64,000 bases of DNA from Methanomicrobia archaeon (GCA_015661395.1 JACWML010000010.1:2499-66498); one strand, 5' to 3'. Shown: positions 1,027 through 57,479, counted from the stretch's first letter. The notes: generated by a model from the letters alone, not told the origin. A program made the numbers and translations.

Positions 1027-1085
1027 CCCTTCTTACCGGTCCCGAGAAGGCGTAACCCCGTCGTTTTTTTGCCAGTCGACGCAGG

Positions 1086-1775
1086 CTAGACGATCGGACT
1101 TACGCCGCGCCCATAAGAAGCAGCCGGCTGCTTTTTCTTTGTAGCCTTCCGTCTTCGTTCGAGGATCTTTTTTACCTTCTTCAGCCGGTACAAATCCTCC
1201 CTCTCCCGCTCTTCAATGGATATCTTGATGTATTTGGCTTGGCTTTTTAGCTCAGGTATGAGTACTTGTTCGAGGGCGTTTACGCGCCTTCTGTTCATTT
1301 GAATCTCGTCTCCGAGCCTGCGAAGAGATGTTTCAGTTTCTGCCAGCCCGATGATCAGATCTAGCTCCGCTTCATACCGCTCTGCCGTTTCGTCAATCCG
1401 GCCGCTCGTCCCTATCATACTGTAACCCCGTTCGAGGACGCTTTTTGTGACCGTTTTTCGCTCAACGAGAGGAACGGGAACCCCCATTATGTTTTTTCCC
1501 CGAATCTCAAGGGTCAGGGATCGTTTCGTTGCAAAAGAAGCGGATTTCAGAGCTGTAAGATCGTCGACGGCTTCGGCGACGCACAGCGAGCGCTGCGCGG
1601 CGACTGCTGCGGTCTCCAGTTCTTCTCGCGATTTGGAAACCGAGACCATAATGTGAAAAAACTCCTGAATGAGGGCGTCCATTTTTTCGCGCAAGAGGTC
1701 TCGTCCTTGCTCCGCTAGCTTTATTTGAGCCCTCTTCTTGATGAGTTCCATTCTGGTCGGATTAACTTGTTCCAC
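1086..1775 (-). CDS. atpD: A-type ATP synthase subunit D
   Basis: 229 aa. Coiled-coil D-subunit signature, last gene of the atpHIKECFABD order, overlaps the atpB stop. Confidence 0.9.
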
Positions 1776-4910: not shown

Positions 4911-4913
4911 GTC

Positions 4914-5234
4914 CTATCGCCTCACCACGATGTTGTACCCAATCGCCCTGCGCAGCATCCGTTCGATGTAGTCGGTGCGATCGATCTGTCTTGTTCTCGA
5001 AGGTATCGGAATGATTATTGGTCTGTGCAGCTTTTCGATTTTTTCCATGAGCTTATCGTCCAATGAAGCCATAAAATCCTCGTTCACCGCGACAATGCCG
5101 GTGTCATCCTTAAATAACAAAGGGGGGATTATGCTCATAGCCTCCGCTAAGGTAGCCACTTCGAGAACCTCGACTCCCGCCAGCCGAAAACCCGGTGCCG
5201 TTTCTGGGTCGGTTACGACTACAAATTTATACAA
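4914..5234 (-). CDS. atpF: A-type ATP synthase subunit F
   Basis: 106 aa. Size and position between atpC and atpA. Confidence 0.8.
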   Translation of the reverse strand: MYKFVVVTDPETAPGFRLAGVEVLEVATLAEAMSIIPPLLFKDDTGIVAVNEDFMASLDDKLMEKIEKLHRPIIIPIPSRTRQIDRTDYIERMLRRAIGYNIVVRR

Positions 5235-6285
5235 AGACCAGTTCCTCCATCACTTCCTTTTCTGGCACGTACTCGGACTTGCACATCGCTATGATCCGGA
5301 TGTTGGTGATCTCGTTGAGCTTGGCCCACAAATAACCAATGACCAAGGCAAGACTTAGCGGATCGCCAGAGAACAAACTCAGGGCTTTTTGTAAGAGAAA
5401 CTTATCGAGCTCTTTTTCAAATGGGGATATCTTTTCTGCGGTGATGTACTGGTCCGGAAGCTGGGCGAGGAAGGCGTAAGAAGTGCCCGCCAATTGTTTG
5501 GTAACGCCGTCCATCGTTCGAGCTTTGCTTAAAGCCGAGAGCTTATCGACGTTTAACTCTTTTCCCCCGGAAATGAAGTAGTACTGGGGGTCCTCAAGTT
5601 CAACCTTGTCGCGAATGATCCGCAAAACGTTTTTTATGTTGGTCACGTCTATTTCCGTCCGCACTATCCCCCGAATGATCCCTTCATCGTAAGAATCACC
5701 AGCGACGGCGTCTAGAGCGTGGTTATAGTAAAACTTGTCGAGAGCATACTCCAACACAACGAGATCTCGCGTTTCGCTGAATTCCTTAAAATGTTGCGTT
5801 AACGGCCGTGAATATTCGATCCCCCACGTCGCAAGTAAGTCAATAACTGCTTTGACATCTGGTTGCTTAATCATCTCGGTGAGCGTCGCATCGCTAAGCG
5901 CTCCGGCAGGTGCAAGGCTCTCTGCGATCTCTTCAGGCACCTCTTGGATATTTTTCCCTCTCAAGATCGTCTTTATGTTTTGGATGTCCCATTTGTTCAG
6001 GAATATGTTAATAAGCGTTTCAGCGTCTTCGCCTTTCACAAAACTTAATATCAATCGAAAGGTCTTGCTGAGATTCCGCCGCAGCGCGTCTTCGACGCAC
6101 GCGAGACCGATATATTTGACACTCGCATCTTCTAGGTCTTGTCGGTACGGCGTGTTTTCTAACTCGTCGACAAAGGAGTTGATGTCCATTTTGGCCCCTA
6201 AGGCCTCGAGTTCTTTCCGCTCAAGGAGACGGCTTTTCATGCCCCTTATGCGCGCACCGATGTACTCGTAGTCCACCTTAGTCAC
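5227..6285 (-). CDS. atpC: A-type ATP synthase subunit C
   Basis: 352 aa helical protein in the canonical operon position. Confidence 0.85.
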   Translation of the reverse strand: MTKVDYEYIGARIRGMKSRLLERKELEALGAKMDINSFVDELENTPYRQDLEDASVKYIGLACVEDALRRNLSKTFRLILSFVKGEDAETLINIFLNKWDIQNIKTILRGKNIQEVPEEIAESLAPAGALSDATLTEMIKQPDVKAVIDLLATWGIEYSRPLTQHFKEFSETRDLVVLEYALDKFYYNHALDAVAGDSYDEGIIRGIVRTEIDVTNIKNVLRIIRDKVELEDPQYYFISGGKELNVDKLSALSKARTMDGVTKQLAGTSYAFLAQLPDQYITAEKISPFEKELDKFLLQKALSLFSGDPLSLALVIGYLWAKLNEITNIRIIAMCKSEYVPEKEVMEELVFV

Positions 6286-6952
6286 CGAATAGCGTGGAAA
6301 AGATCTCTCGTTTCAGGAGTTCTTTGGCATTGTTCAGTCTTGATTCAATCGTATTGGTTACGACCACCTTTCCGTCTTTGGTGCTGACGGCTAAACCTCC
6401 TGCGCTGGTCAAATCACCGACGATCTCGGAGTTCCGGCCTAGTTCATCTAACACCTGCCTGCATAGAGTTTCGTCCCGCGTATCGATATGAAGGCTTACC
6501 TTCTCTCCTTCGAGTTCGCGAACCGCTTCTTGGAGCATCTTCTTGAAATCTTCTTTGTAACTGGGGTTATCTCTAAAACTGTCTAAACTTTTTTTTGCGT
6601 CGAAAAACGCTCGATGTATGACTGCGTCCTTCTCTTTTATGATCCGCATTTTATTTTCGGCCTTGGCGTTGTAAATCAGTTTGTTTCGCTCTATCTCAGC
6701 CGATTTTTGTGCGTTCTCGCAGTGTGAGGCCTTAATCGCCTCAGCCTTTGCTTCTGCGCTTCTTTTTATTTCTGCGGCTTCTTGATGCGCCTTTTGTATC
6801 ATCTCTGTGATACCCTTTTCAGCGCTTACCCCCATCGACGCAATCAAATTTTCGTATGTCATTCGCCCCAACAGCCTTTTTTTCGGCTCTCCTTTGATGA
6901 GCAGTTTTTTTTGCGCGCTAGCGACTAGATTCCGATTGGTATTCTGAAACAA
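6278..6952 (-). CDS. atpE: A-type ATP synthase subunit E
   Basis: Charged coiled-coil N-terminus (AEIKRSAEAKAEAIKA) and globular C-terminus. The true start is probably an internal Met (MTYENLIASMGVS...). Confidence 0.8.
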   Translation of the reverse strand: MFQNTNRNLVASAQKKLLIKGEPKKRLLGRMTYENLIASMGVSAEKGITEMIQKAHQEAAEIKRSAEAKAEAIKASHCENAQKSAEIERNKLIYNAKAENKMRIIKEKDAVIHRAFFDAKKSLDSFRDNPSYKEDFKKMLQEAVRELEGEKVSLHIDTRDETLCRQVLDELGRNSEIVGDLTSAGGLAVSTKDGKVVVTNTIESRLNNAKELLKREIFSTLFGD

Positions 6953-7013
6953 CAGGAGATTTCATTGTAAACCCAGCAGTGTGCAGCGCCACCATTGAAA
7001 GGCCTAAGCGTCG

Positions 7014-7238
7014 TCACATCGTAGGCAGAACGAAAAGGATAATCGCAGCGACAACGAAGCCTAAAATGACTAAAGTTTCTGGAAGTGCCACAAACACGAG
7101 CGCTAAGCCGAATAATTCTGGTTTTTCTGCAATCACTCCTGCTCCTGCTGCACCGATTCTTGCCTGAGCTATCCCAGTTCCGAGTGCACCCAATCCAAAA
7201 GCTATTCCCGCACCAATCGCTATCGACCAATCGAGCAT
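7014..7238 (-). CDS. atpK: A-type ATP synthase proteolipid subunit K (c subunit, single hairpin)
   Basis: 74 aa with two TM helices, a Gly-rich helix 1, and the conserved carboxylate in helix 2 (ALPETLVILG). Confidence 0.85.
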   Translation of the reverse strand: MLDWSIAIGAGIAFGLGALGTGIAQARIGAAGAGVIAEKPELFGLALVFVALPETLVILGFVVAAIILFVLPTM

Positions 7239-7469
7239 TTTTCCAACTCCTATGGTTTTTTTGTCAGCACCGCGTCTTACGGTAACATCGTGATCCCACG
7301 CGGATTTGCGACTTGGATCCCAATAATATTCTACTCGGTGGCGCGCTTGCTTGTCGCATATCTGCGTTCATGTCCTCCACCTTCGCAGAGAGGTTTGATG
7401 ACCTTTTTTTGCCCCCGCTCTACAGACGGCTTCGACGTCGTGCGCTGCATAAAAGCTACCTCCGGACTC

Positions 7470-9392
7470 TCACTTTGCCGTCCCCCGCTTGAAAGGATCG
7501 TACGATCTGCCCCCGCCCTCATAAAACTTTGAATAGAATTCTACGATATGTAGCCTGAGTGCTTGAATCGAGGGGCTAAACATACACAGGACGACATTTA
7601 ATCCGTGAAGCAACACCGCTACCAAAAGACCTACCAATACGATTCCCATTGAGCTTCCTAGCTCATTGGCTACAAGCGCGAGTACTACGGAAGCCATCCC
7701 TATTGCCATGAGTCTCGCGTACGAGAGGACGTTTGTAAACGTACTCATGACTTCTATTGCTCCGGCAATTCCGCCTCCATACATGACTAGCGGGAGTCCA
7801 ATGACGAGTAGAACTATGCCGGGCGCTACGAGTATAGAGGGAACCACTGCAACTATCGCGAGCAGAATCACTATGATGCTCGCCAAGGTGAGGATCATGC
7901 CAACCCTGGTACATACAAGCTTTTGATTGCTGCGTCTGCGCGCGTTCACCACCCCTATGCCGAGGCCAAAGAATACGTGAAATACCCCGATGGCGACCGT
8001 GAAAATGATCAGCGGCACGATAATTTTAATCCTATCTAATGTCACCCCATCTATCGTTACGGGCTGTATCCAGCCCATCATTTGCCCGAGATTTCCGAAG
8101 AACTCGCCATAGAGATAGCCAAAGAACATTGTGGGAATTGAGCAGATGATCAGGATGTTCATCAGTTGCTTGATTGTGGGACTGCGTTGTCCGTAGAACC
8201 ATCTCACCACCAGCGCAAACACGAGTATACAGATGCCGTACCCAATGTCGCCTACCATGAGGCCAAAGAAGAACGGGAAAAACAGCGCGAGCAGCAGTGT
8301 CGGCTCAATCTCGCCGGACCGTGGTGTACCTATCAAATTGCTGAGAGTCTCAAAGGGCTTGACAATTCGCGGATTGTCGTAACACGACGGCGCGTTGTAG
8401 TTCTCCTCTCGACTTACGCTAAGGTCGTTTACGATGACTCTGCCTTCAAATGCCTTTTTTAATGCATTTTTAGTGTTTGCGAGCTGCTTTTGTGGCACCC
8501 AACCAATCATAACGAAGGTGTAGTCTGTCTGCCCGAACTTGGTGAAAACACTGAGCTCTTCATTCCTGTCCTCAAGCACTTCTTTGAGCACGCTGAGCTT
8601 CGGGTACCAGTTCCTCGACAGTTCTACTAACTCCTCGTTGACGGCGCTCATTTCGACCGTTGATTTCTGCCGTTGTTCGTCGACTAATGTCAGAACCTGG
8701 TCAAATGGCTTATCCAGATATTCGGGCGGGAGTCGAACTTCATTCACATTTTGGGACCAAATAAATGAGTGGACCTGGTCAGAATACCTTTTATTAAACA
8801 CCGTCACCGCAGCCGTCGTCGCCTCGTCGACATCCGCTGACATGAGCTCAAATTGGTTGTGCGTGATCTCGACTAGCGCTGAGCGAACAATCTCGAGGAC
8901 ATCCTTAAATTCCCTTTGGATGAGAATTACGGTGACTTCAAACCCCTCTAAAATAGGAAGTTGAGCCTCCAAAGGCTGCAGCTTCTCAATAACTTCTTCG
9001 TAATGAGTGAGATTCGTAAGCGTAAATTCAATATCACTTTTTCGCGTAGCTAGCTCTTTGGTTACCGTCTCGAGCTCGCCGATAACCTGGTTTGCCTCGT
9101 CGACGAGCTCATCATCATTTTTCCACCGAAGTCCCTCATAGATTTGGGTCTTTAGCGCCTCGTTCACGGGCATCGTGGGGAGCAGGTGAAACATCCCGCT
9201 GACTTTGACTAACGCACCTGCGATGTCGATTTTTGGGCTCGCCTGCACGCGTCGCAGCATCGTATCTCCTGGGGCGATAGTCGTCGACGCGTCTTCTAAA
9301 TGAACCGTCCCTAGGTTGTACAGAAAATCAACCGTGCTGTGCAAGTCATCTTTTGGTCCAATGACCTGGATCTTGGTCATTTTCTGCAGCAT
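7470..9392 (-). CDS. atpI: A-type ATP synthase subunit I (a subunit)
   Basis: 640 aa. Soluble N-terminal half followed by a multi-TM C-terminal half. Position upstream of atpK. Confidence 0.85.
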   Translation of the reverse strand: MLQKMTKIQVIGPKDDLHSTVDFLYNLGTVHLEDASTTIAPGDTMLRRVQASPKIDIAGALVKVSGMFHLLPTMPVNEALKTQIYEGLRWKNDDELVDEANQVIGELETVTKELATRKSDIEFTLTNLTHYEEVIEKLQPLEAQLPILEGFEVTVILIQREFKDVLEIVRSALVEITHNQFELMSADVDEATTAAVTVFNKRYSDQVHSFIWSQNVNEVRLPPEYLDKPFDQVLTLVDEQRQKSTVEMSAVNEELVELSRNWYPKLSVLKEVLEDRNEELSVFTKFGQTDYTFVMIGWVPQKQLANTKNALKKAFEGRVIVNDLSVSREENYNAPSCYDNPRIVKPFETLSNLIGTPRSGEIEPTLLLALFFPFFFGLMVGDIGYGICILVFALVVRWFYGQRSPTIKQLMNILIICSIPTMFFGYLYGEFFGNLGQMMGWIQPVTIDGVTLDRIKIIVPLIIFTVAIGVFHVFFGLGIGVVNARRRSNQKLVCTRVGMILTLASIIVILLAIVAVVPSILVAPGIVLLVIGLPLVMYGGGIAGAIEVMSTFTNVLSYARLMAIGMASVVLALVANELGSSMGIVLVGLLVAVLLHGLNVVLCMFSPSIQALRLHIVEFYSKFYEGGGRSYDPFKRGTAK

Positions 9393-44927: not shown

Positions 44928-45312
44928 GCTATCGTGCGTGTCCGTTCGCTTGTTGATTCACCAGACTGTCTTCTTAGTGACATATCACTGAGCTGATTCG
45001 GACGTCGTTACTGTCAGTACCTATACATATCGCGTATAGATATCTAAACCGAACGTCAGCTGTTTTGAAATATTCCCTCGAATCTGAGACGTTCTGAGCA
45101 ACTTCTTGGTTTTGTTCGATGTACACGCTGCGATGGCCGCCGAGAGGACGCGAGACGGGCTCAGTTCGACCAAGTCGCGGCTAAGCTGTCTGAGACAGTG
45201 GGTTGAACGTCCTTTCGCTCGCGCTTGCGGCCATTCGTATGGTGTCAGAGCACCGTGTCGTGAGGTGCAGAATTGCCAGTAACTCGGCCGTGCTCCTCGT
45301 CCAAACGCGGTG

Positions 45313-47898
45313 TCACCCGGGAACAGGTTTTCGACGCGAGGGTTTGCGCTTGTTGGCAGGCATTCGAACGATCTCCATTCCCACCTCGGCGAGCAGGCGT
45401 GGTATGTTACGCGCGGCGTCTCGGTCGTACTCCTTCATGTGTTCGGGAAGCTCTGAATAAGGTATGATCCACGGGCTTAGCTTCTTCTCTTCGTCCTTTA
45501 TCGGATCCAATTTCCACCCGTCAAGGAGGCGTTCCACGTTCCAGCGGCCGTGCTCAAGCTCCGCCATGATCTCCACCTCGTCGGGAGTGAATTGCATCCG
45601 CGTCACGGTATCGCTGCGCGCCTTCCGGACGGTATAGCCGACGGCGTTCAATTTATGGGCGATATCGTCTGCCTGCGCCCTGTTGGATTGTTTCAAGTCG
45701 TCGCGGAGCTTGTCCCATTTGGCGCGCCGGGGTTCCTGGCTTTGGGTGCGCATGAGGAGCTTGCGATAGTTGTCATGGATCTCCTGCGCCATGCGCTCGC
45801 GCACCGGTGTGGGGAGCGTTTGCTCGGTTGAACTGATGAACGCCTGTGCCGAGATTGGATCCTTTGGCAGCTGAATGAGCTTCTCGGATTTGCTCCATTC
45901 GTCGTCTTGGATCAACCGCGCCGCTTCGTGTCCGCTTCCTGCGACAATGGCGACGCTCGCGCGCAACGCGAGCGCGAGGCGGTATTCTATGCCGGCGATG
46001 CTTTGTCCATCGATGCCAAGAAGCTTGACGCTCTTGGGCGAAACGTCTGATCCGATGAGATCAACCCAATACTGCAGGGTTTCCGAAGGGTTGAAGCGCA
46101 GGGGTTCCGAAGCTTTGAAGCCCTCGCTATCGGTGCGCCGGATATCGCAGTATCGCTGATCGACCGCGGCGTCAGGAAGCACGCGCGGCACGAATCCTAT
46201 GGTCTGCAGCTCGGGGTAGCGCTCTTGCACGTCGCCGACAATGCGGCTGATGCCGCTGCCCGTGCCGCCCGAGATGAGCGTCCCTGTGAACCCCTTGAAG
46301 GCCTCGAGCATGAGCCCTCGATAGCTCGCTGCGTATCCCTCATCGGGAGAATCGTAGCCGCCTGCGACGATGGCTACCGGCTCCTTTAAGCGTCGGCTAT
46401 TGGGCGTCGTCAGCTTTTTCAGGTCGGCGCGTGCCTCTGCGGCGTCGAATCGTCCGGCCCATCCGATGAGCAAGATGGTGCGCGCCCATTCGTACCCGCC
46501 CAACGCCTCGTGCACGGGCGCGAGCTTCACTAGTGAGTGGTAGGCATTTTCGATCGGCCACTCGGCGGTGCTCATCTGGATCGCCTTCGCATAGGCGATG
46601 AGGCTTTCGTGGCTCTCACCGAGGAGCAGGTGGAGCATCCCGAGGGCGTAGTATGCCCACGGGATGTTGATGCCGACGGCGGTCTGACCCCAACAACGTT
46701 GTATCGCCATGCGCATCAATGGTCGCACCACGTCGATGATCGACGTCGTACCACGGTGACTGATCTCGAGCTCGAGATAGTTGATGAGCGCGTAGGGATC
46801 TGACGGATCGAGCTCGAACGCCTTACGGTAGAGCTCGCGCGCCCGCGGTTCGTTGCACTCGCGATACGTGTCGGCCAGGCGCACGTACGTGTCGGCATTC
46901 TCGGCTTTCGCGAGCGACTCGTCAAGGTAGCCCTGTCCCTTCACGTAGTCCTCGCTCTCGGGCGTCCCACTGTTCTGCTTGCAGAGGGCGACACCCAGAT
47001 CTTTGAGAAGGGGGGCGTAGCCCGTGTCAGCGTACGCGCTGAAGGTCTCGATAGCCTGCTCCCAGTCGCCCAGCGTCATCGCCAGTCGGCCGATGCTGTG
47101 CGCGTGCTGGACGTTGTGCGGGTCGTGCTCGAGGATCATCTTGAGGGTGCGTATCTCATCTCGCACCTGCGTCTCGTTCATGTAGGCGCTGTAGTTGGCG
47201 GCATACGCCGTAAGCCGGTTCTCGATCGTCGCGAAGGATTGATCGGCGTCTTCGAGCAGCGCCGCTATTCGCGCGAGCTCGCGCTGCCACTGTCTGGGGA
47301 AGGTGAAAGCGCCCTTGTAGGCCTTGTCGTGACTGAAGTCGGCCCACGCGTGTTCGAGCAGCGTGCGCACCTGTATTTCCGCTTTCAACTCGGCGACCGT
47401 CTCGGGCACATCGATCGAAACCCCGCCGACAGTAATCGAACCGGGACGATGTAGGCTGACGATGTAGTGGACCGAGCGGTACCCGAACTCGGCCGCCTTG
47501 AGGCGCTGGTCAATATTGAAGCTGTTGTCCCAATCGATATCGAAAACGCGATCGGAATCACTCGGCTCAGCCTGCTTCTCGATGTACGTGCAGATCGCCG
47601 TCACCTCTGTCTGGGTATGGGTGATGACGCGTCCGCCGCAGAGGTCGGTGAAGTCATTGACGGGATCGCGCGTCTCATCCTGTTTTCGAATGATCTTCTC
47701 AGCGAAACTCGAAACTGATTTCGGCCGCGTCTGAACGATCGCGAGGGGCGCATACCGCTTAGCGAGTGCATCGAGGATGTTGTAGAGTACCTGCGCGAGC
47801 TCTTTATAACGTGGTTCCACGAGCTCGAAGTTCTCGATCTGTCCCTCATACCACGTGCGGAACTGCTCTTGATCAGCCTCACTCATCGTGCTCGGCAC
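45313..47898 (-). CDS. 861-aa multidomain protein: N-terminal RelA/SpoT-type nucleotidyltransferase (alarmone-synthetase-like), TPR repeats, a SLOG/LOG-like Rossmann domain, and two C-terminal RyR repeats
   Basis: RelA/SpoT blocks RPKSVSSFAEKIIRK, TDLCGGRVI, EFGYRSVHYIV and EIQVRTLLEHAWADFSHDKAYKG, including the catalytic Asp and Glu positions. TPR-like helices at ~250-400 aa. G-rich Rossmann loops VAIVAGGYDSPDEGY and ISGGTGSGIS. C-terminal AELEHGRWNVERLLDGWKLDPIKDEEKKLSPWIIPYSELPEHMKEYDRDAARNIPRLL matches the RyR domain consensus, preceded by a degenerate RyR half (EIHDNYRKLL...KWDKLRDDLKQSNRAQADDIAHKLNAVGY). Confidence 0.85.
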   Translation of the reverse strand: MPSTMSEADQEQFRTWYEGQIENFELVEPRYKELAQVLYNILDALAKRYAPLAIVQTRPKSVSSFAEKIIRKQDETRDPVNDFTDLCGGRVITHTQTEVTAICTYIEKQAEPSDSDRVFDIDWDNSFNIDQRLKAAEFGYRSVHYIVSLHRPGSITVGGVSIDVPETVAELKAEIQVRTLLEHAWADFSHDKAYKGAFTFPRQWQRELARIAALLEDADQSFATIENRLTAYAANYSAYMNETQVRDEIRTLKMILEHDPHNVQHAHSIGRLAMTLGDWEQAIETFSAYADTGYAPLLKDLGVALCKQNSGTPESEDYVKGQGYLDESLAKAENADTYVRLADTYRECNEPRARELYRKAFELDPSDPYALINYLELEISHRGTTSIIDVVRPLMRMAIQRCWGQTAVGINIPWAYYALGMLHLLLGESHESLIAYAKAIQMSTAEWPIENAYHSLVKLAPVHEALGGYEWARTILLIGWAGRFDAAEARADLKKLTTPNSRRLKEPVAIVAGGYDSPDEGYAASYRGLMLEAFKGFTGTLISGGTGSGISRIVGDVQERYPELQTIGFVPRVLPDAAVDQRYCDIRRTDSEGFKASEPLRFNPSETLQYWVDLIGSDVSPKSVKLLGIDGQSIAGIEYRLALALRASVAIVAGSGHEAARLIQDDEWSKSEKLIQLPKDPISAQAFISSTEQTLPTPVRERMAQEIHDNYRKLLMRTQSQEPRRAKWDKLRDDLKQSNRAQADDIAHKLNAVGYTVRKARSDTVTRMQFTPDEVEIMAELEHGRWNVERLLDGWKLDPIKDEEKKLSPWIIPYSELPEHMKEYDRDAARNIPRLLAEVGMEIVRMPANKRKPSRRKPVPG

Positions 47899-47940
47899 CT
47901 TCGCTCATTTCGAATTGATGTAGCACCCATAAGTATCGCT

Positions 47941-48357
47941 TCACTCCGGCATAACATTTCCCTGCGATTCTGCAAAGAAGCGCCGAAACTGCGTCGCAAG
48001 GTCAAGCTGATGCATCTCGGACGGCTGCACCCACCGATAGGAATCGTGCTCGCTGCTGAGTTTGACGTCCTCTGTGACGAGGTTCCCTTCCATGATGAGG
48101 CACGCCACTTTGACCGCGGGCACCTCGTACTCGATGGCCCCCAGCAATCGCCGCACGGATATCTGCAGGCCTGCTTCTTCGAACACCTCTCGCTTCAATG
48201 CCTCATCCAGCCGCTCTCCCGGATCGAGCTTGCCGCCGGGCGGTTCCCACTTCCCCGGATTGGTCTTTGAATCGGGTGATCGGCGCAGAAACAGGCATTT
48301 GCCCTCGTTGTTTTGAAGCAGTGCATAGACGGCGATTCCCCACGCTTTTTCAGTCAT
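47941..48357 (-). CDS. NUDIX hydrolase
   Basis: Complete Nudix box GGKLDPGERLDEALKREVFEEAGL. Start placed at the internal ATG (MTEKAWGIAVYALL). The upstream extension to 48621 is Arg/Cys-rich and unlikely to be coding. Ends 43 bp before the RelA/SpoT gene on the same strand. Confidence 0.8.
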   Translation of the reverse strand: MTEKAWGIAVYALLQNNEGKCLFLRRSPDSKTNPGKWEPPGGKLDPGERLDEALKREVFEEAGLQISVRRLLGAIEYEVPAVKVACLIMEGNLVTEDVKLSSEHDSYRWVQPSEMHQLDLATQFRRFFAESQGNVMPE

Positions 48358-48487
48358 TATAACCGATCCTCCTCGAGCGTCGTGTGCGACGATATTAGGG
48401 TTTAAACTAGGGTTATAGGGCGCCTTTGCCTTAAAAGTGCTGCTTTCGCACCAAGAACAAGCGTCGCAGTCAGCGCGCGCCAGACAG

Positions 48488-49213
48488 CTAGTATTGGAGC
48501 GCGTACCAACACGCAAGCGCGGTCGCGAGTACCATGTCATCGTATTCGCCGTCGCGCCACGCTTCCTCCCACGGGCCGCCGGAACTGATGCTGACCCTCG
48601 TAGCGAAATCCTGCAGCTCATCTTTTAACAGATCCCACAGCGGCAGGTCTTTTGTGGCGCGGAGCCAACTTTTGTTGAGCAGCAGCTTTACTGAGCGTGC
48701 GAGCTCACGCTTCGGGACGCGGTAAAAGCCGTCTCCGTACGAAACGTCGTCCCCGCCGATCACCACGGGCAGCGGCAGGAGGCGTGCCGCGCGGAACGCG
48801 TCGATGGCGGAGAGGCCCACGCCCGTGGCGTCCACGACGAGGTAGTATGGCACCAACCGCCGTGCCTCGGCCGACCGTTTTGGGGTGAGCGCGCGGATCC
48901 GACCTATGATCGTGAGCCGGGGCGTGCCTGGGGGTAACCGCTCTATGTGGCGAACCCGCAGCTTAACTGGTTGATCGAGCGGTTCACCGCGGCCCGGGCG
49001 CAGTCCTCCGAGTGTTGCCCACGGGGCGTCGGGCGCTCCGCCGGCGAGCAGGCTCTGGCCGATTTTTTCGATCGCGACGACAGCGGAAAAGTCATCGGCG
49101 CGGCCGAGATCACAGCTGATGAACACTCCGGCCAAACTGCGCGGTGAGCGCTGACGCGGTTCGTAGCGCGCATACCGATTGGAGAGGTCACGGGCGTCCG
49201 AGTCGCTTATCAC
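48488..49213 (-). CDS. possible RNase H-fold nuclease (phage terminase large-subunit C-terminal / RuvC-like pattern)
   Basis: N-terminal beta-strand Asp pattern (GVFISCDLGRADDFSAVVAIE), a second one (YYLVVDATGVGLSAIDAF) and a C-terminal DD-x3-ATALA-W (YDDMVLATALACWYA), as in RuvC and terminase nucleases. Pattern-level only. The ORF is Arg-rich. Confidence 0.35.
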   Translation of the reverse strand: MISDSDARDLSNRYARYEPRQRSPRSLAGVFISCDLGRADDFSAVVAIEKIGQSLLAGGAPDAPWATLGGLRPGRGEPLDQPVKLRVRHIERLPPGTPRLTIIGRIRALTPKRSAEARRLVPYYLVVDATGVGLSAIDAFRAARLLPLPVVIGGDDVSYGDGFYRVPKRELARSVKLLLNKSWLRATKDLPLWDLLKDELQDFATRVSISSGGPWEEAWRDGEYDDMVLATALACWYALQY

Positions 49214-49519: not shown

Positions 49520-49837
49520 GTGGTGTTGGTAGTGCGATCAAGCGCGTCGAACCAAGCGTGTGCCGAAACGATTAACTTTGGTGCTGCGGCTGAACAGGAG
49601 CGCCTCCGTGAGCTGTTGCAGCTGGCGGTCGATGAAGTCGCCCGAAGATATGAACACCGGTACCTGGAGCCGAGTCTCGTTTCGTTTGTGCTCGCGCGCA
49701 TGGTGCACGAGGCTGATCCCACGTTTTCTGAAGCGCTCGTGCGAGCCGAGTTCCTCAAGTTGGCCCTTGAGTTCACCGAACAACTAGACCGAGCGACGCG
49801 CGGCAGGTTTTCGCTAAGCCACGTGTGGAAGACGTAA
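49520..49837 (+). CDS. hypothetical helical protein (GTG start)
   Basis: ORF only. Overlapped by Arg/Ser-rich antisense ORFs that look less protein-like. Confidence 0.25.
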   Translation: MVLVVRSSASNQACAETINFGAAAEQERLRELLQLAVDEVARRYEHRYLEPSLVSFVLARMVHEADPTFSEALVRAEFLKLALEFTEQLDRATRGRFSLSHVWKT

Positions 49838-50007
49838 CCGGCTCTGCGGTAGCCGCCACCACCACGTCCGAGAGCACGCAACGGTATGGCTCTTTTTGTC
49901 AGGTCGCAGAGTGAACGCGACGTCACGCTGCGGAACGGACGGACGTGAGCGTGCGGAGGCTAGTCCTGAGTTTGCATACGGTGGCTGCTCGCGACGGGGC
50001 GTGAGAA

Positions 50008-50044
50008 CTACACCAAAACTACACCAAAACTACACCAAAACTAC
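50008..50044. repeat. 11-bp tandem repeat ctacaccaaaa, 3 full copies plus a partial
   Basis: actacaccaaaactacaccaaaactacaccaaaactacgctg, seen directly in the intergenic DNA. Confidence 0.85.
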
Positions 50045-50166
50045 GCTGCTGACGGTGATGAGCGTGCTGTTTGTAACCACGTCGTCATATGCATCGCCGC
50101 TCCAAGTCGCGCGAAGTTGTTCTCGCTATGCGAGGGCGAAAAAAAGTAAGCGAACAAGTCATCGAT

Positions 50167-50472
50167 CTAGAGTGCCTTTTTCGCCTCTTCTATCGCCTTC
50201 GCAGCAATTTCAGGCGTCGCCGCTCCAAGAATGACGGGCGTGAACTCTGGGTACGTGCCGAACTTCTTCGACACAATGAGCATAAGCTCCGTCATTTGTG
50301 CCTCATCCAGGTCGGCCACCATGAAAACAGCGCGCATGCCGGCCTGTGTATACGAGGCCTCTGGCGCGAACCGATCCATAACATGTCCGAGAATCGGTCC
50401 AGGCCCCCCTTCTTCGAAGTCTAAGCGATTGCCTTCGTCGGCAGGAATCTCGAAATATACCAAGTAACGCAC
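50167..50472 (-). CDS. small hypothetical protein (101 aa), possibly DUF3303-like
   Basis: MRYLVYFEIPADEGNRLDFEEGG...AVFMVADLDEAQMTEL... resembles the dimeric alpha+beta barrel-like DUF3303 family. From memory only. Confidence 0.4.
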   Translation of the reverse strand: MRYLVYFEIPADEGNRLDFEEGGPGPILGHVMDRFAPEASYTQAGMRAVFMVADLDEAQMTELMLIVSKKFGTYPEFTPVILGAATPEIAAKAIEEAKKAL

Positions 50473-50949
50473 GATTGATCACCTCTCGCATAATTCAACG
50501 TTCGAGAATAAGTGCTTTCACCGGGGGTTGAGCGCTTCTTGGGCGTCAAAATGGCCTAAATCGTTCGGTAGGTCACTCGTTTGGCAGCGCTGGCGGAGCG
50601 TTGGCGACACGTGGGCCAAGGACGGTAGCTGCGAGCTCAAAATCGTTGCCAGTTGTCACGGTGCCGGCGCGACGCCCCTAAAATCGTTCGGCGGTAAAAG
50701 CTTGTTTCGAGCACAGGTCTGCTCTTTCACCTTGTGCTGGTCTTGGTCGCTTACTTGTACATTCGTCGATATGCAGCTTCACGACAAAACAAGAGATGAC
50801 TGCGATAGTTAATGCAAGAGGGCCAGCAGGCCATTTCTGTCAGACAATTCACGATTGCCCAAAGAACGCACGCATGGCCATGGTCTGACATGATTGAACG
50901 ACGCAGCGAAAATGAAGAAACTAGTCATAGAAGGCCGGGATTTAGGAAA

Positions 50950-51025: not shown

Positions 51026-52420
51026 GTGAATGTTTTTGGCGAGGCCGACAATCTGACCGCACGAACCCCCGTTCGTGAAGTGTGCTTTCATCGAATTCCT
51101 TACGGTTCACCCGCGTCAATTTTCTTTAAACTGAGCGCAGGGCACGATTACGCGTTCCTGCTCGAATCGCGAACCGGCCTAGGAAACACTGCACAATACT
51201 CCTACGTCGGATTTGATCCGACCACGGTCGTGCGCGTCAAGGATGGCGTCACCACCGTCAATCAACGTCAGAAACACGTTCCGGACCCCTTAAAAGCTGT
51301 TCAGAACCAAATCAGCTTGAAGCGGCACGCACAGCATCGATATGGATTCCTCGGTGGGGCGGTCGGGTATCTCTCCTATGACGCTATCCGCTATTGGGAG
51401 CGCCTTCCGCAAACGGCCGTCGATGATCTTGACTTTCCTGACCTCGAAATGGGTATCTACGACGACGGGATAGTTCTCGACCACGTGCGCCGTGAGGCGT
51501 TCTACTTCCATCTCGAGGAGAACCGTTACGAACAGCTCTCTGCCCTCTTGCGCAGGCCCTGTGAGCCGGGCGACTTTGCCATTGCGCATCCGCGCCTGAA
51601 TGTCGGCAAGGCGAAGTACGCGACGATGGTGGAGAAGGCGAAAGCGTACATCGCTGCTGGCGACATTTTTCAGGCGGTCCTTTCGAAACGCTATAGCTTC
51701 GCATTTTCCGGCGATTTGGCACCCGTGTATCTCGCGCTTAGAGCGATGAACCCCTCGCCATACATGTTCTACCTTAAGATGCAAGACCGCGCTATTATAG
51801 GGACAAGTCCTGAAACCCTCGTGAAACTCACCGATGACAAGATCGAGAGCTTTCCCATAGCCGGCAGTCGCCCGATTACAGGAGACCCTATAAAAGACGC
51901 TCAGCTGACGGACGACCTTCTTAGCGACCCGAAAGAGCTAGCGGAGCACGTTATGCTTGTCGATCTGGCGCGCAACGACGTAGGCCGAGTTGCCGAGGCC
52001 GGCAGCGTGCACGTTCCTGCGTTCATGGACGTGCAGCGGTACAGCCACGTGCAGCACATTGTCTCGCTGGTTTCCGGGAAATTACGTGATGGTGCGGACT
52101 GCTTTGACGTCTTGCGTGCGGCGTTTCCGGCGGGCACGGTGTCGGGCGCGCCTAAAGTTCGCGCTATGGAAATCATCGAAGAGCTTGAGCCGGTTCGGCG
52201 CGGACCGTACGCAGGTGCGGTCGGGTACTTTTCATGCAACGGCGATATGGATTTTGCGATTACCATACGGGCGCTGTTTGCGAAAGGGGGTACGTGTCAT
52301 CTGCAGACGGGAGGCGGCATCGTTGCCGATTCCGTTCCTGAGAACGAATGGACAGAGACGGAACTCAAAGCTCGGGCGTTAATGAAGGCGCTCGAGGACA
52401 CAGGAGGCACTTTGCGATGA
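51026..52420 (+). CDS. trpE: anthranilate synthase component I
   Basis: Chorismate-binding domain blocks (GTSPETLVKL, LVDLARNDVGRV, GAVGYFSCNGDMDFAITIR). GTG start. Confidence 0.9.
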   Translation: MNVFGEADNLTARTPVREVCFHRIPYGSPASIFFKLSAGHDYAFLLESRTGLGNTAQYSYVGFDPTTVVRVKDGVTTVNQRQKHVPDPLKAVQNQISLKRHAQHRYGFLGGAVGYLSYDAIRYWERLPQTAVDDLDFPDLEMGIYDDGIVLDHVRREAFYFHLEENRYEQLSALLRRPCEPGDFAIAHPRLNVGKAKYATMVEKAKAYIAAGDIFQAVLSKRYSFAFSGDLAPVYLALRAMNPSPYMFYLKMQDRAIIGTSPETLVKLTDDKIESFPIAGSRPITGDPIKDAQLTDDLLSDPKELAEHVMLVDLARNDVGRVAEAGSVHVPAFMDVQRYSHVQHIVSLVSGKLRDGADCFDVLRAAFPAGTVSGAPKVRAMEIIEELEPVRRGPYAGAVGYFSCNGDMDFAITIRALFAKGGTCHLQTGGGIVADSVPENEWTETELKARALMKALEDTGGTLR

Positions 52421-53004
52421 AGGTTCTTGTTATTGACAATTATGACTCATTTGTGTACAACCTCGTTCAACATGTAGGCGAATTAGGCGGAACACCGCTC
52501 GTGTACCGAAACGACCAGTTGACCCTCGAGGAGGCAACGGCACTTGATCCGGATCGGATAATCCTTTCGCCAGGTCCGGGCACACCGACAGAGGAGCGCT
52601 TCTTCGGCGTGTGTTCTTCTATCCTTGAGCATCTGAGCCCGACGACGTCGACTCTCGGGGTGTGCCTCGGCCATCAAGGAATCGTCGCAGCCTTTGGCGG
52701 TCACATCACAGCTGCGCAGCACGTGATGCACGGCAAGGCAAGCCACATCCGGCACTGCGGTTCAGGGCTCTACGATGGTATTGAGAATCCTTTCTTCGCC
52801 ACCCGCTACCACTCCCTCGTCGCGGACCGCGCATCGCTCCCGCCGTGCCTCGAGGTAACGGCCGAAGCGTGTGACGACGGGGAGATCATGGGCGTCCGCC
52901 ACGACACGTACCCGATAGAAGGTGTGCAGTTCCACCCCGAATCTATCTTGACCGCATCCGGCAAACGCGTCATCACCAATTTTCTCAAGGGGGGGCGAGC
53001 GTGA
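52417..53004 (+). CDS. trpG: anthranilate synthase component II (glutamine amidotransferase)
   Basis: MKVLVIDNYDSFVYNL, catalytic GVCLGHQ, and the His/Glu dyad region. Start overlaps the trpE stop (ATGA). Confidence 0.9.
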   Translation: MKVLVIDNYDSFVYNLVQHVGELGGTPLVYRNDQLTLEEATALDPDRIILSPGPGTPTEERFFGVCSSILEHLSPTTSTLGVCLGHQGIVAAFGGHITAAQHVMHGKASHIRHCGSGLYDGIENPFFATRYHSLVADRASLPPCLEVTAEACDDGEIMGVRHDTYPIEGVQFHPESILTASGKRVITNFLKGGRA

Positions 53005-54062
53005 TCAGGGACAGCATAGCGAAGGTCGTGAGCGGAGCGAACTTGACGCCTCGAGAAGCGCGCGCCGCCATGCTAGAACTGCTGTTAGGCGCGGCGACAG
53101 AGGCACAGATCGGCGCGTTCCTCACCGCTCTTTCGATGAAAAGGGAAACGGTAGAGGAGCTCGCTGCCTTTGCGTTGGTTATGAAGGAGTTCTGTCACAT
53201 CATCCGTCCGAACGTCAAGGGGCGGATGGTCGACACGTGCGGCACAGGAGGCGACGGCATAAAAACCTTCAACGTCAGCACCGTCGCGGCATTGGTCGCC
53301 GCCGGTGCGGGAGTCACCATTGCAAAGCACGGAAATCGCTCCGTTACGAGCAACAGTGGCAGTGCGGATGTGCTGGAACAGCTCGGACTGAACCTGTCCC
53401 AAGGGCCAGCCGAGGTCCAAAAGGCAATCGAGTCAATCGGCATCGGGTTCATGTTCGCCCCTCAGTTCCATCCGGCAATGCGCGCCGTGCTTAAGACGCG
53501 ACAAGAGATCGGCGTGCGGACGGTTTTTAATCTTCTCGGGCCACTCGTGAATCCGGCGAACGCCCAGGCGCACCTTCTCGGCGTCGCTGAGCGGGCGTGG
53601 GTGATGCCACTCGCCATGACGTTGATGACTCTCGGGTGCGAGGATGCCATGGTTGTCTACGGGATCGGCGGACTTGATGAGATCTCGCTCTTTGGAAAGA
53701 CGGTCGTGGCACGCGTGACGGGCACGAGCCTTACCCAACACGAGCTGAGTCCAAAAGACTTTGCCCTTGAGTCGGTCAAACCGAGCCAACTTCTCGTGAC
53801 TGACCCGCGACAGAGCGCTCGTCTAGCGATCACATTGCTCAATTCGAATCCCCGCGTTCAAGAACCAAGAATGGGGGTCACGCTCGCCAACGCGGCGGCT
53901 GCGATCCTCGTTGGCGGTCTAGGCGATGACCTCGAGTATTGTGTCGAACTGGCAGCTGAATCGATCGCAAGCGGTGCAGCCTATGGAAAACTCAGAGCGC
54001 TCGTAGAGCTCTCCGGCGGGAACGTTTCAGTGCTCGACGAGTTGGAGAGGTCGCATGCCTGA
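53001..54062 (+). CDS. trpD: anthranilate phosphoribosyltransferase
   Basis: DTCGTGGDG and KHGNRSVTSNSGSADVLE motifs. Confidence 0.9.
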   Translation: MIRDSIAKVVSGANLTPREARAAMLELLLGAATEAQIGAFLTALSMKRETVEELAAFALVMKEFCHIIRPNVKGRMVDTCGTGGDGIKTFNVSTVAALVAAGAGVTIAKHGNRSVTSNSGSADVLEQLGLNLSQGPAEVQKAIESIGIGFMFAPQFHPAMRAVLKTRQEIGVRTVFNLLGPLVNPANAQAHLLGVAERAWVMPLAMTLMTLGCEDAMVVYGIGGLDEISLFGKTVVARVTGTSLTQHELSPKDFALESVKPSQLLVTDPRQSARLAITLLNSNPRVQEPRMGVTLANAAAAILVGGLGDDLEYCVELAAESIASGAAYGKLRALVELSGGNVSVLDELERSHA

Positions 54063-54843
54063 TTTCTTTGATATCCTCTGTCGCACCGCCCACAAAACCG
54101 TCGCGGGAGGGTATTACTCCGGGTTCGCGGAGCGCGACAAGCCGGTTGATACCCGCCCCACGCTTCGTTTGAGTGAGTGTATACGCAGGTGCGCGTGTCT
54201 TCCGCTCATTGCCGAGGTTAAGCTGGCGTCCCCGACGATGGGAGCGGTCCACGTGGACGCGGGCGCAATTGCGAGGCACATGCAAGCAGGAGGTGCTGTC
54301 GGAATTTCCGTAGTGACCGAACCCCGTTTCTTCAAGGGGTTCTCTCATATGCTGGGCACCGTCCGAAGCTGCGTCTCGGTCCCCCTCGTTATGAAAGACT
54401 TCGTCGTCAGTGCCTGCCAGATCGAAGCCGCGCGAGACGCCGGCGCGAGTGCTATCCTGCTGATACAGGCGCTGTTTGACCGAGGCTACGCCACACGCGG
54501 AGCTGAGGACATGATTGCGTTCGCGCACGCGATCGGACTTGAAGTGCTCTTGGAGGCACATACCGATTCTGAATTTAAGCGGGCCTTATCTACTGACGCA
54601 GACCTTGTCGGCATCAACAACCGGGATCTGAGGACGCTAACCGTCGATCTTATGACCACCAGGGATATCTTGGAAAAAGTCCCCACAGATGGGAGGGTCG
54701 TCGTGAGTGAGAGCGGCGTTGAGACCCCAGAAGAAGCCCTATTTCTCAAGCGATGTGGCGTAGACGCGTTATTGGTCGGTTCCGCCCTCATGCGGGCTGA
54801 GGACGCGCGTCGAGCGGTCAACAGGATGGTGGGTGCGGCATGA
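54055..54843 (+). CDS. trpC: indole-3-glycerol phosphate synthase
   Basis: IGPS TIM-barrel blocks (IAEVKLASP, ISVVTEPRFFKGF, VGINNRDL). Confidence 0.9.
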   Translation: MPDFFDILCRTAHKTVAGGYYSGFAERDKPVDTRPTLRLSECIRRCACLPLIAEVKLASPTMGAVHVDAGAIARHMQAGGAVGISVVTEPRFFKGFSHMLGTVRSCVSVPLVMKDFVVSACQIEAARDAGASAILLIQALFDRGYATRGAEDMIAFAHAIGLEVLLEAHTDSEFKRALSTDADLVGINNRDLRTLTVDLMTTRDILEKVPTDGRVVVSESGVETPEEALFLKRCGVDALLVGSALMRAEDARRAVNRMVGAA

Positions 54844-55487
54844 GGCGAGTGCGTGTCAAGGTCTGTGGCATAACGAACATGGAAGACCTCGAAGTAGCCG
54901 TCGATGCGGGCGCGGATGCGCTCGGCTTCGTCGTGGATGTGCCTGAGTCACCTAGAAGCATATCGCTGGATCGCGCACGGGACCTCGTCGAAGCGACGCC
55001 GCCCTTCGTCCAGGGCGTTCTCGTTTCGGTGTTTGACACCATCGATCAGCTCGAGACGCTGTGCTCGTGTCTTGCCCCCGATGTGGTGCAGGTGGCAGGC
55101 ACGCTGCCTCGCGATGCCATTGGTGAGCAGCTTCGCGGCATTCGGGTAATCCAGGCCGTGGCGGTGAATGATCGGGCGGCGGACGTCGCCCTCCCCTCTG
55201 CGCACTGCGATGCGGTTCTCACCGACTCGCGCGTTCCCGGCGCACATGGGGGCACGGGGAAACCGCATAACTGGAACGTTAGCCGGGCAATCAGGGAACT
55301 GATCGCGCCTACCCCCCTTATATTGGCGGGAGGCTTAACGCCAGGCAACGTTCGGGCAGCCATCGAAAATGTGCGCCCGTATGCGGTTGACGTTTCAAGC
55401 GGAGTTGAGATCCGCGCAGGTATCAAGGATCCCGCGAAGATTCGCGCGTTTATCGAAGCAGTGACGGAGGCATCTGATGGACTATAG
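54840..55487 (+). CDS. trpF: phosphoribosylanthranilate isomerase
   Basis: VKVCGIT N-terminus and the PRAI fold. Position in the operon. Confidence 0.85.
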
Positions 55488-56670
55488 CGATTATCCCGTC
55501 AACGGCAAGTACGGGCACTTTGGGGGCAGTTTCGTTCCTGAAACGTTGGTAGCGGCACTTTCAGAGCTTGCAGAGGCCTATGCGCGTTTTCGTGGAGATC
55601 ACGATTTTCAACAGCGGCTCAGCGGATACCTCACTACATTTGCGGGACGGCCAACCCCCCTGTACTACGCCGAAAACATCTCCGAGAAACTCGGCGGTGC
55701 CAGGATCTACCTCAAGCGTGAGGACCTTGCTCACGGCGGCGCCCATAAGATTAACAATACACTCGGTCAGGCACTGCTTGCAAAGCGCATGGGGAAAACA
55801 CGCGTTATCGCCGAAACGGGAGCAGGGCAGCACGGGGTAGCCACCGCTATCGCGTGTGCGGCGCTGGGGCTTAAATCTGAAGTTTACATGGGGACTGAAG
55901 ATATGGAGCGTCAGAAGCTCAACGTGTTCCGGATGGAGCTGCTCAACGCAGTGGTGCGCCCGGTGGAACTCGGATCCCGGACGCTCAAGGATGCGATCAA
56001 CGAAGCCCTGCGCGATTGGACAGCCAACGTGCTTACGACGCACTACCTGATCGGTTCCGTTGTCGGGCCCCACCCCTATCCGATGATCGTTAGGGACTTC
56101 CAAAGCGTTATCGGGTACGAAATACGCGAGCAAATGACGCGACAGGTCGGGCGCCTCCCGGATGCGCTCGTCGCGTGCGTTGGAGGCGGCAGCAACGCGA
56201 TCGGCACGTTCCATCCGTTCCTCGACGAGGATGTGGCGATGCACGGGGTTGAGGCTGGAGGAGAGGGGCTCGCGACGGCACGGCACGGGGCGTCGTTGTG
56301 CGCAGGGTCAGAGGGGGTGTTCCACGGCATGTTGACGTACCTGCTTCAAGACGCTGACGGGCAGGTTCAGCCGACGCACAGCATTTCAGCCGGCCTCGAC
56401 TATCCCGGCGTTGGCCCCGAGCACGCGTTTTTGAAACACGAGAACCGAGTCATCTTTAGCGCCGTGAGCGACACGCAGGCGCTTGAGGCCTTCCTCGAAT
56501 TGTCAAGGACTGAGGGCATCCTGCCTGCTTTGGAGTCGGCACACGCCGTTGCTCACGCCATGAGGCTCGCGCCTACGCTAGATACGGACGATGTCCTCGT
56601 GGTTACGCTTTCAGGCAGAGGCGACAAGGACGTTGACGTGGTAGCGCGCTACGTGGGGGCAGACCTATGA
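55477..56670 (+). CDS. trpB: tryptophan synthase beta chain
   Basis: PLP-Lys block [13 protein letters not shown], then GGGSNAIG and the rest of the TrpB fold. Confidence 0.95.
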
Positions 56671-57479
56671 GCGCCATCGCCGCGACGTTTCGCGACTTGA
56701 GACAAAAGAGTGAGGGTGGCCTGATCGTGTACGTGATGGCAGGCGATCCTACACCAAAGCACACCTTGAAAATCGTCGATGCGTTGGTCGCAGGCGGGGC
56801 CGACATCGTTGAGCTCGGAATCCCGTTCTCCGATCCGATCGCCGATGGTCCAACGCTGCAACGCGCAGCTGGGCGGGCGCTGGAAGCAGGAACAACCCCA
56901 AGGAAGGTTTTTGACCTTGCCCGCGCGATATCGAGGGCGCACGAGGTGCCGGTGGTGGTTATGACGTACTACAACATCGTGCACCAGATGGGCGTTGAAG
57001 CGTTCTGCACAGCGGCTCAACAAAGCGGCGTGAATGGCGTCATCGCCCCGGATCTTCCTGTTGAAGAAGCGTCGCAGTATAGGGAGGCGGCGATGCGACA
57101 TGGCATTGACACCATCTTTCTCGCTGCCCCATCGACCTCAGCGGCGCGATTGGAAAAGCTCGTGACAGCCTCGTCAGGTTTCGTGTACCTCGTTTCAGCG
57201 AACGGAATCACCGGCGCGCGGAAGATCTTGCAGGACAAGAGCATCGCGAGTATACAACGAACCGCGTCACTCATTCGAGGGAGAGCCCCATTAGCGGTCG
57301 GATTCGGCCTTTCGTTGCCTTCGCACGTCAGGCAGGTGATCGACAACGGAGCGAGCGCGGCCATAGTGGGGAGCAGATTCGTGCAGATTGTCGAGCAGAA
57401 CCTGGACGACGGACACACGATGCTGAGAGGGCTGCGTGAGTGTGCGCACACGCTAAAGGGTGGCACTTTGCTCAGCTGA
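56667..57479 (+). CDS. trpA: tryptophan synthase alpha chain
   Basis: [18 protein letters not shown] and GFGLS blocks. Confidence 0.9.

Follow-up and report, generated by a model that had tools for sequence, protein, structure and literature searches.

The 64,000-nucleotide stretch of a Methanomicrobia archaeon genome analysed here (GCA_015661395.1, JACWML010000010.1:2499-66498; hereafter the window) carries on its minus strand two adjacent genes, one encoding a NUDIX hydrolase and the other a large protein in which a RelA/SpoT-type synthetase domain is fused to TPR, SLOG and RyR domains. Comparison with related loci shows that these genes form a conserved, co-evolving and tightly spaced pair, located in a cassette that is variably present and accessory. 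The pair is probably a two-gene operon, with a likely role as a signal-triggered growth-arrest or antiviral switch. The original prediction, made from the sequence alone, had placed both genes in a three-gene module together with an upstream gene for an RNase H-fold nuclease; as described below, this third gene is a neighbour that lies outside the module. The features of the cassette, all of which are on the minus strand, are as follows.

45317..48486, minus strand: variable two-gene cassette (promoter region, NUDIX gene and synthetase gene), 3,170 bp, missing in relatives.
48428..48444, minus strand: TATA/BRE (transcription factor B recognition element)-like element AGCAGCACTTTTAAGGC, candidate sole promoter of the pair, conserved in relatives and about 70 nt upstream of the NUDIX ATG.
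47941..48357, minus strand: NUDIX hydrolase, 138 amino acids, MutT/NudI/NudG-like (PF00293, PADLOC PDC-S07, 3grn).
45313..47886, minus strand: RelA/SpoT-TPR-SLOG-RyR protein, 857 amino acids, ATG start (Pfam, homologues).
47182..47886, minus strand: RelQ/RelP-like pyrophosphokinase (synthetase) domain, residues 1-235.
46411..47175, minus strand: TPR array, residues about 238-492 (TPR Pfam families, AlphaFold2 (AF2) model, SPY/OGT TPR matches).
45817..46389, minus strand: SLOG domain, TRPM (LSDAT) type, residues about 500-690.
45352..45810, minus strand: RyR (R12-type) domain, residues about 693-845 (PF02026, Foldseek).

The three open reading frames (ORFs) of the original prediction are all present with the domain labels given to them, at 48488..49213(-) (241 amino acids), 47941..48357(-) (138 amino acids) and 45313..47898(-) (861 amino acids). 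For the largest of these the GTG start at 47898 does not stand: the ATG at 47886, giving a protein of 857 amino acids, is the most likely start because a GGTG motif precedes it, four relatives share it and its product equals a 100%-identical 857-amino acid database entry. An exact-sequence lookup of the window's large protein returned no record. With the ATG at 47886 as the start, the spacer between the NUDIX and synthetase genes is 54 nt rather than the 43 bp given originally, and the tight spacing of the two genes is upheld.

The full-length architecture of the large protein is shared by more than 760 homologues (45-87% identity), and relatives of its gene are found in 328 of about 185,000 species-representative genomes, covering archaea and many bacterial phyla. 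Gene neighbourhoods were examined at 80 of the 328 species-level loci by six-frame translation and phmmer searches of the resulting ORFs. A NUDIX gene related to that of the window (E 1e-18 to 1e-78) is the immediate upstream neighbour, encoded on the same strand, at ~37 of the 80 loci and a more divergent one is the immediate downstream neighbour at ~9, mostly in Gemmatimonadota, so that a NUDIX gene adjoins the synthetase gene on the same strand at ~46 of the 80 loci, in archaea and bacteria alike. Within 6 kb, a NUDIX gene is present at 52 of the 80, although the upstream side is cut by a contig end in eight loci, three of which have too little sequence to judge. The spacers between the two genes are typically shorter than 100 nt. 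Across phyla the identity of the NUDIX proteins to the window copy (about 42-48%) follows that of the synthetase proteins (44-49%), and the two families have correlated pairwise distance matrices (Mantel r 0.61, p 0.001). Ratios of nonsynonymous to synonymous substitution rates (dN/dS) of 0.13-0.41 for the pair indicate purifying selection on both genes. The linkage of NUDIX and RelA/SpoT-SLOG-RyR genes that was originally proposed, an ancient one, is thus borne out by its recurrence, by the short spacers and by the Mantel correlation.

The element AGCAGCACTTTTAAGGC is conserved in the window and in three of the related loci with which it was compared (these are given L-numbers: here L002, L004 and L005), and is found as a variant in L071. 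The 54-nt spacer between the NUDIX and synthetase genes contains no comparable A/T-rich element. Because a TATA/BRE-like element is found upstream of the NUDIX gene only, it is a candidate archaeal promoter from which both genes may be expressed as a single transcript. A promoter and terminator scan of the window used bacterial models and is uninformative for an archaeon.

The N-terminal synthetase domain of the large protein gives a RelA_SpoT match at E 1.8e-15 in a Pfam scan. Profile searches against the PDB matched it to RelP and RelQ at E 1e-17 to 7e-17, as against E 0.01 for CapRel, and RelQ/RelP are its best matches both in sequence and in structure. The significant PF04607 match, together with the match to solved small alarmone synthetases, places the domain amongst the RelA/SpoT homologues. 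The catalytic and ATP-binding motifs of the synthetases (R-x-K, the D of DxxG-R, GYRSxH and EIQ(I/V)RT) are all present and, in a set of 29 sequences sharing 46-87% identity, residues R54, K56, D81, G84, R86, G135, Y136, H140, E170, Q172 and T175 are invariant, with R137 and S138 nearly so. In the region that follows, several TPR families match in Pfam, the AF2 model is all-helical and the structure matches the TPR arrays of SPY and OGT.

The two ligand-sensor domain types at the C terminus of the protein, SLOG and RyR-R12, are shared with calcium channels of animals. Of 29 orthologues, 19 are matched by the SLOG family (best E 2.3e-9), and the SLOG domain of the window protein provides the kind of signal-binding domain (SLOG or Macro) by which Thoeris effectors are recognised. 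The RyR domain matches PF02026 at E 7.4e-15 (55.4 bits, compared with a cut-off of 27.4), and Foldseek matches its fold to Repeat12 of human RyR3 bound to ATP/ADP, with a template modelling (TM) score of about 0.6. H779 and W782 are invariant in the family and align with the ligand-contacting residues H75 and W78 of the phage protein RyDEP (DyoEdafos gp78, compared directly with the window protein), and RyDEP D117 aligns with Glu819.

Three further observations on the synthetase gene can be recorded here. Homologues P0040, P0054 and P0058, of ~1,055 amino acids, have an extra KaiC/RecA-like ATPase domain (PF06745) fused to the RelA/SpoT-SLOG-RyR protein. In L005 (5983-8521; OY969693.1, a complete chromosome) the synthetase gene is split into overlapping ORFs at 5983-7773 and 7661-8521, reflecting either a frameshifted pseudogene or an assembly error. 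The window itself has an imperfect 24-bp tandem duplication (two copies, 87% match) at 46074..46121, within the SLOG-coding part, that is probably without significance.

The 138-amino acid partner protein matches PF00293 at E 2.5e-21 (76.5 bits, cut-off 21.1) and the PADLOC model PDC-S07 at E 1.7e-24. Its Nudix box is complete (residues 42-64: G42-x5-E48-x7-R56-E57-x2-E60-E61-x-G63), the catalytic residues of the box are invariant among 39 partner NUDIX sequences, and its dN/dS is 0.13-0.30. The best solved structure for the protein is 3grn (E 2.6e-29), an uncharacterised 'MutT related protein' from Methanosarcina that was not among the 50 candidates scored in the NUDIX homologue search. In profile and PDB searches the protein is closest to MutT, NudI and NudG, that is, to the nucleoside triphosphate (NTP)-type group. 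Hydrolysis of (p)ppGpp has been reported for E. coli MutT and NudG and for the Bacillus NUDIX hydrolase NahA (PMC5845004, PMC7584652).

That the cassette is accessory is seen most clearly in L088, which is 92% identical to the window at the nucleotide level from the trp operon as far as the 241-amino acid ORF's stop codon and again from just past the synthetase stop codon, with about 35 bp in place of the 3,170 bp at 45317..48486. The pair is likewise missing from L085 and L089/L090, and in the relatives without the cassette the flanks are 86-92% identical to the window. The 35-nt filler of the empty sites aligns best with the NUDIX 5' leader, at a score no better than that of shuffled sequence. 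L004 and L005 carry the same cassette (86-91% identical) in two contexts, which are related neither to one another nor to that of the window, so that the cassette occurs in three different genomic contexts overall. In L071 and L002 the upstream flanks are 95.6% identical and the cassettes only 72% identical, indicating allele replacement. The cassette has apparently been exchanged horizontally. No integrase or tRNA gene was found in the window and no target-site duplication is evident at the cassette junctions. We also considered whether the pair might be phage-encoded and rejected this, no relatives of the synthetase gene having been found on 2.9 million viral contigs. The flanks are as first described, with genes for a CDP-alcohol phosphatidyltransferase, a HAD hydrolase and an amino-acid permease on one side (Pfam) and seven trp genes, a trpEGDCFBA-type set at 51026..57479, on the other. 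The idea of an accessory, variably present element therefore stands; its extent, originally put at 45.0-50.5 kb, is reduced by the comparison of relatives to 45317..48486.

Elsewhere, the pair keeps company with genes of the kinds seen in conflict systems only in part of its range. Of the Pfam families represented in 120 genes immediately beside the synthetase gene, TIR_2 is the most frequent. Iterative hidden Markov model searches, checked against Pfam, identified TIR proteins within 6 kb in 22 of the 80 loci, mostly encoded on the same strand and often directly downstream, in which the TIR domain is fused to WD40, TPR or NPHP3_N-type NTPase modules; a Thoeris-like input is suggested at those loci. 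DUF4062-NACHT, NPHP3_N-type NTPase and WD40 proteins also recur in the neighbourhoods, and PDC-S07 and PDC-S33 appear as weak PADLOC candidate matches. A second RyR-domain protein is encoded in 26 of the 80 loci, usually a TrkA_N-RyR protein of about 610 amino acids. The TrkA_N-RyR gene is directly beside the synthetase gene in many bacterial loci (L018, L022, L024, L027, L036, L038, L048, L068 and L084), suggesting a three-component variant made up of NUDIX, TrkA_N-RyR and synthetase proteins. A further 26 loci resemble the window in having the NUDIX partner alone, with no TIR or second RyR gene.

What might such a pair do? In type I Thoeris, 3' cyclic ADP-ribose (3'cADPR) made by a TIR protein binds the SLOG domain of ThsA and activates this effector (10.64898/2025.12.03.692087). 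Phage proteins with the RyR domain (PF02026) bind 2'/3'cADPR at nanomolar affinity or cleave them, via H75, W78, H100 and D117 (2026 preprint, PMC13232231), and the R12 (RY12) domain of RyR1 has been described as an ADP sensor (PMC13642953). The analysis establishes by computation that the genes are linked and co-evolve, that their catalytic motifs are intact, which folds the domains have, that the pair is variably present and what kinds of gene adjoin it; the ligand, the product, the direction of control and the biological role (antiviral or conflict-related dormancy) are inferred, along the following lines. The SLOG domain, the R12 domain or both would bind a ligand derived from an adenine nucleotide. 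At loci with an adjacent TIR gene this ligand is probably of cADPR type; at those without one, like that of the window, candidates are ADP-ribose (ADPR), ADP/ATP and a signal whose source is encoded at another genomic site. Binding would relieve auto-inhibition of the synthetase, which would then move pyrophosphate from ATP to a purine nucleotide to give a (p)ppGpp- or (pp)pApp-like alarmone and so arrest growth. By hydrolysing the alarmone, the NUDIX protein would set a threshold and allow recovery. We put the chance that the large protein makes an alarmone under ligand control and the NUDIX hydrolase removes this product, the two acting as a conflict or dormancy switch, at about even. A make-and-break relationship between the two enzymes had been proposed at the outset, and it stays the most likely reading given the resemblance of the NUDIX protein to MutT, NudI and NudG and the activity on (p)ppGpp reported for MutT, NudG and NahA. 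It is possible, but on balance doubtful, that such systems form a new Thoeris-like immune class, with a cADPR-type signal made by a TIR protein, a SLOG and/or RyR-R12 reader, an alarmone output and clearance by NUDIX.

Several points weigh against a ligand-gated synthetase with its product cleared by the NUDIX protein. The LSDAT_prok (SLOG) match is weak in the window copy (E 0.0019, 18 bits compared with a Pfam cut-off of 25.4), and the residue that aligns with the phosphate-coordinating H100 of RyDEP is Ser804. The pyrophosphate acceptor of the predicted synthetase could be GDP/GTP, ADP/ATP or a tRNA 3' end, between which sequence cannot distinguish. No TIR gene, second RyR gene or STAND gene is present among the ORFs of the 64-kb window. 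The NUDIX protein is probably not obligatory, since 28 of the 80 loci have no NUDIX gene within 6 kb. We know of no use of (p)ppGpp in archaea, and a search of the available literature found no experiments on any member of the family. The NUDIX protein might also act on the input rather than the output, hydrolysing an ADPR-type ligand (linear ADPR formed from cADPR, for example) and so ending the signalling, with the synthetase still gated by the signal; this arrangement would resemble the pairing of SLOG with NUDT9H in TRPM2. We regard it as somewhat unlikely: its sequence falls much nearer to MutT, NudI and NudG, which are NTP-type enzymes, models of ADPR pyrophosphatases match it only at E 0.015-0.035, no ADPRase is found within its 60 best PDB matches, and 3grn and 16 of the 39 partners lack a conserved Pro80. 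Another reading makes the pair part of housekeeping stress or energy-state signalling, with R12 and SLOG as sensors of ADP/ATP or a metabolite and with an alarmone that would be made by the synthetase and turned over by the NUDIX protein. The ADP-sensing description of RY12 of RyR1 (PMC13642953), the RelQ/RelP-like synthetase domain, the purifying selection on both genes and the 26 window-like loci in which the pair is found without TIR or second RyR genes are all in keeping with this. The patchy distribution (328 of about 185,000 species genomes), the absence of the cassette beside flanks of 86-92% identity, its several contexts and allele replacement, and neighbours enriched in TIR, NACHT and WD40 proteins are not, and we think this reading unlikely.

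A toxSAS-type pair, in which a constitutively toxic protein resembling a small alarmone synthetase (SAS) would be held in check by the NUDIX protein as an enzymatic (type IV-like) antitoxin degrading its product, would account for several features of the locus. The hydrolase gene comes first in a tight operon, the pairing is conserved and the genes co-evolve; NUDIX enzymes can degrade alarmones (PMC5845004, PMC7584652), and alarmone hydrolases serve as antitoxins in toxSAS systems (PMC7229694). The 28 loci with a synthetase gene and no NUDIX gene within 6 kb argue against constitutive toxicity, however, and the large protein is an 857-amino acid multi-sensor fusion rather than a single-domain SAS, with a synthetase domain far closer to RelP/RelQ than to CapRel (E 0.01). 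A survey of toxSAS systems makes no mention of Nudix proteins (Nudix antitoxins included), TPR or archaea. The antitoxin-like role first suggested for the NUDIX protein is weakened accordingly, and we judge it quite improbable.

The gene immediately upstream of the cassette, the third member of the original module, is of a different kind.

48488..49213, minus strand: orphan nuclease half of a split viral large terminase, 241 amino acids, neighbour outside the module (fold, viral homologues).

The ORF has no Pfam match of its own, although PF17289 (Terminase_6C) is matched by some of its homologues, and acidic motifs (DLG..D, VVDATGVG and DD(L/M)VLA) are conserved in its family. The best Foldseek matches of its AF2 model (pLDDT 72) are to the nuclease domains of large terminases: G20c (PDB 5m1q, E 3.8e-5), human cytomegalovirus (HCMV) UL89 (3n4q) and RB49 gp17 (3c6a). 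The terminase or RNase H-like fold originally proposed for it is thereby confirmed. Relatives of the gene are encoded on 57 viral contigs, where the homologues are stand-alone ORFs of ~205-230 amino acids, their starts overlapping the stop codon of a Terminase_6N ATPase ORF that directly precedes them; because of this arrangement they can be taken as the nuclease half of a split large terminase. In L091 the homologue is one ORF upstream of a Mu-type portal gene. The window gene shares with large terminases the RNase H-like nuclease fold and the conserved acidic motifs; it differs in being chromosomal, conserved in an archaeal clade and under purifying selection (dN/dS 0.16-0.29), and no Terminase_6N ATPase ORF or portal gene was found beside it in the window. 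We also considered a decaying pseudogene and rejected this in view of the dN/dS values and the intact copies in many relatives, fragments being found only in L004 and L005.

Could this nuclease nevertheless work with the NUDIX and synthetase proteins? The three genes are adjacent and on the same strand in the window and L002/L003, and in L004 and L005 a remnant of 75-233 bp from the 3' end of the 241-amino acid gene is still joined to the cassette. Presence and absence across relatives lead us to reject the three-gene module, however. The gene is intact without the pair in L085-L090, and the pair is found without the gene in L071 and in all of the distant loci (roughly 75); moreover, the cassette boundary falls just downstream of the gene's stop codon and the viral homologues are terminase halves. 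A functional module of three genes is accordingly highly improbable, and we read the 241-amino acid gene as a domesticated or long-retained viral relic that is beside the insertion point by chance.

How does the pair compare with systems already described? No experimental or comparative description of the architecture or of its linkage to NUDIX was found in the searchable literature, which did not include the 2015 work of Burroughs and colleagues. That work is said to have defined the LSDAT/SLOG families and may already depict the synthetase-SLOG-RyR architecture. The main text of a systematic survey of TIR systems does not mention it. Type I Thoeris combines a TIR sensor (ThsB) with a SIR2-SLOG effector (ThsA), whereas the output of the pair is a RelA/SpoT pyrophosphokinase and not SIR2, its SLOG is of TRPM/LSDAT type, R12, TPR and a NUDIX partner are added, and there is no TIR gene in the window and none nearby in 58 of the 80 loci. 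From toxSAS and CapRel it differs in its multi-domain synthetase of 857 amino acids, closer to RelQ/RelP, and in a partner that is NUDIX rather than a small alarmone hydrolase or a protein antitoxin and that is apparently dispensable in about a third of loci. Bacterial RelQ/RelP and NUDIX alarmone hydrolases (NahA, MutT, NudG) are like the pair in enzyme types and make-and-break logic (PMC7584652, PMC5845004), but are neither fused to sensor domains nor arranged in an operon; the pair has an archaeal host and is in a variably present cassette. The R12 domain shares its fold with RyDEP and RyR R12 and conserves the ligand-contacting His and Trp (PMC13232231, PMC13642953); unlike RyDEP it is a host-side domain fused to an effector, H100 and D117 are replaced by Ser and Glu, and its ligand binding is predicted. 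TRPM2, which is gated by ADPR through SLOG (MHR1-2) and NUDT9H, is a channel; the pair has no channel, its output is a nucleotide synthetase, and its NUDIX is a separate protein of MutT-like rather than NUDT9 type.

The surroundings of the cassette are variable in their own right. Relatives have a gene of ~130-198 amino acids, with no Pfam match, that is encoded on the opposite strand and separates the cassette site from the gene for the CDP-alcohol phosphatidyltransferase (L088:8956-9808, L085:9005-9595, L002:9136-9732). At about 45128..45133 the window is without this roughly 850-bp segment, a second indel at the same locus. On the other side, upstream of the 241-amino acid gene and divergent from it, is a 105-amino acid ORF at 49520..49837(+) with no Pfam or NCBIfam match; it corresponds to called genes of ~101 amino acids in L085-L089, and the DNA sequence is conserved in L002 and L071 too. 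Beyond this is the repeat that was originally seen as lying just outside the module.

50006..50044, no strand assigned: 11-bp tandem repeat (AACTACACCAA x3.5), outside the cassette (Tandem Repeats Finder, TRF).

The repeat exists (3.5 copies, 100% match in TRF) but does not mark the edge of the cassette, belonging instead to a different variable junction: homology between the window and L085 breaks there, at about 50036. The L085 sequence at the break (610-7165, about 6.5 kb) encodes two HEPN_Apea/ApeA proteins, a truncated integrase of phage type and a TATA-binding protein (TBP), and the 11-bp repeat of L085 is degenerate and shorter; the window has about 0.8 kb (about 50036..50836) with a 101-amino acid ORF (50167..50472). 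The trpE-proximal interval is thus a second variable hotspot beside the cassette.

For annotation, the present results mean that proteins labelled 'RyR domain-containing protein' or 'ppGpp synthetase' in this family are part of a conserved operon with a NUDIX gene, itself currently labelled '8-oxo-dGTP diphosphatase'. If the proposed mechanism is correct, the pair would join TIR/ADPR immune signalling with RelA/SpoT alarmone signalling, two fields that are usually studied apart, and would do so in archaea, for which signalling of the (p)ppGpp type has, as far as we know, not been established. The RyR-R12 domain, whose binding of Thoeris signals was demonstrated only recently and in phage proteins, would acquire a function in cells, on the side of the host. 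What SLOG and R12 sense, a question of relevance to animal TRPM and RyR channels, could also be studied in a simple system of two genes. Should the more doubtful Thoeris-like class prove to exist, a single prokaryotic operon would unite three nucleotide-handling modules that appear later in the animal Ca2+ channels TRPM2 (SLOG, NUDIX) and RyR (R12), and these channel modules may then have a common origin in an ancient ADPR-signalling system, archaea included.

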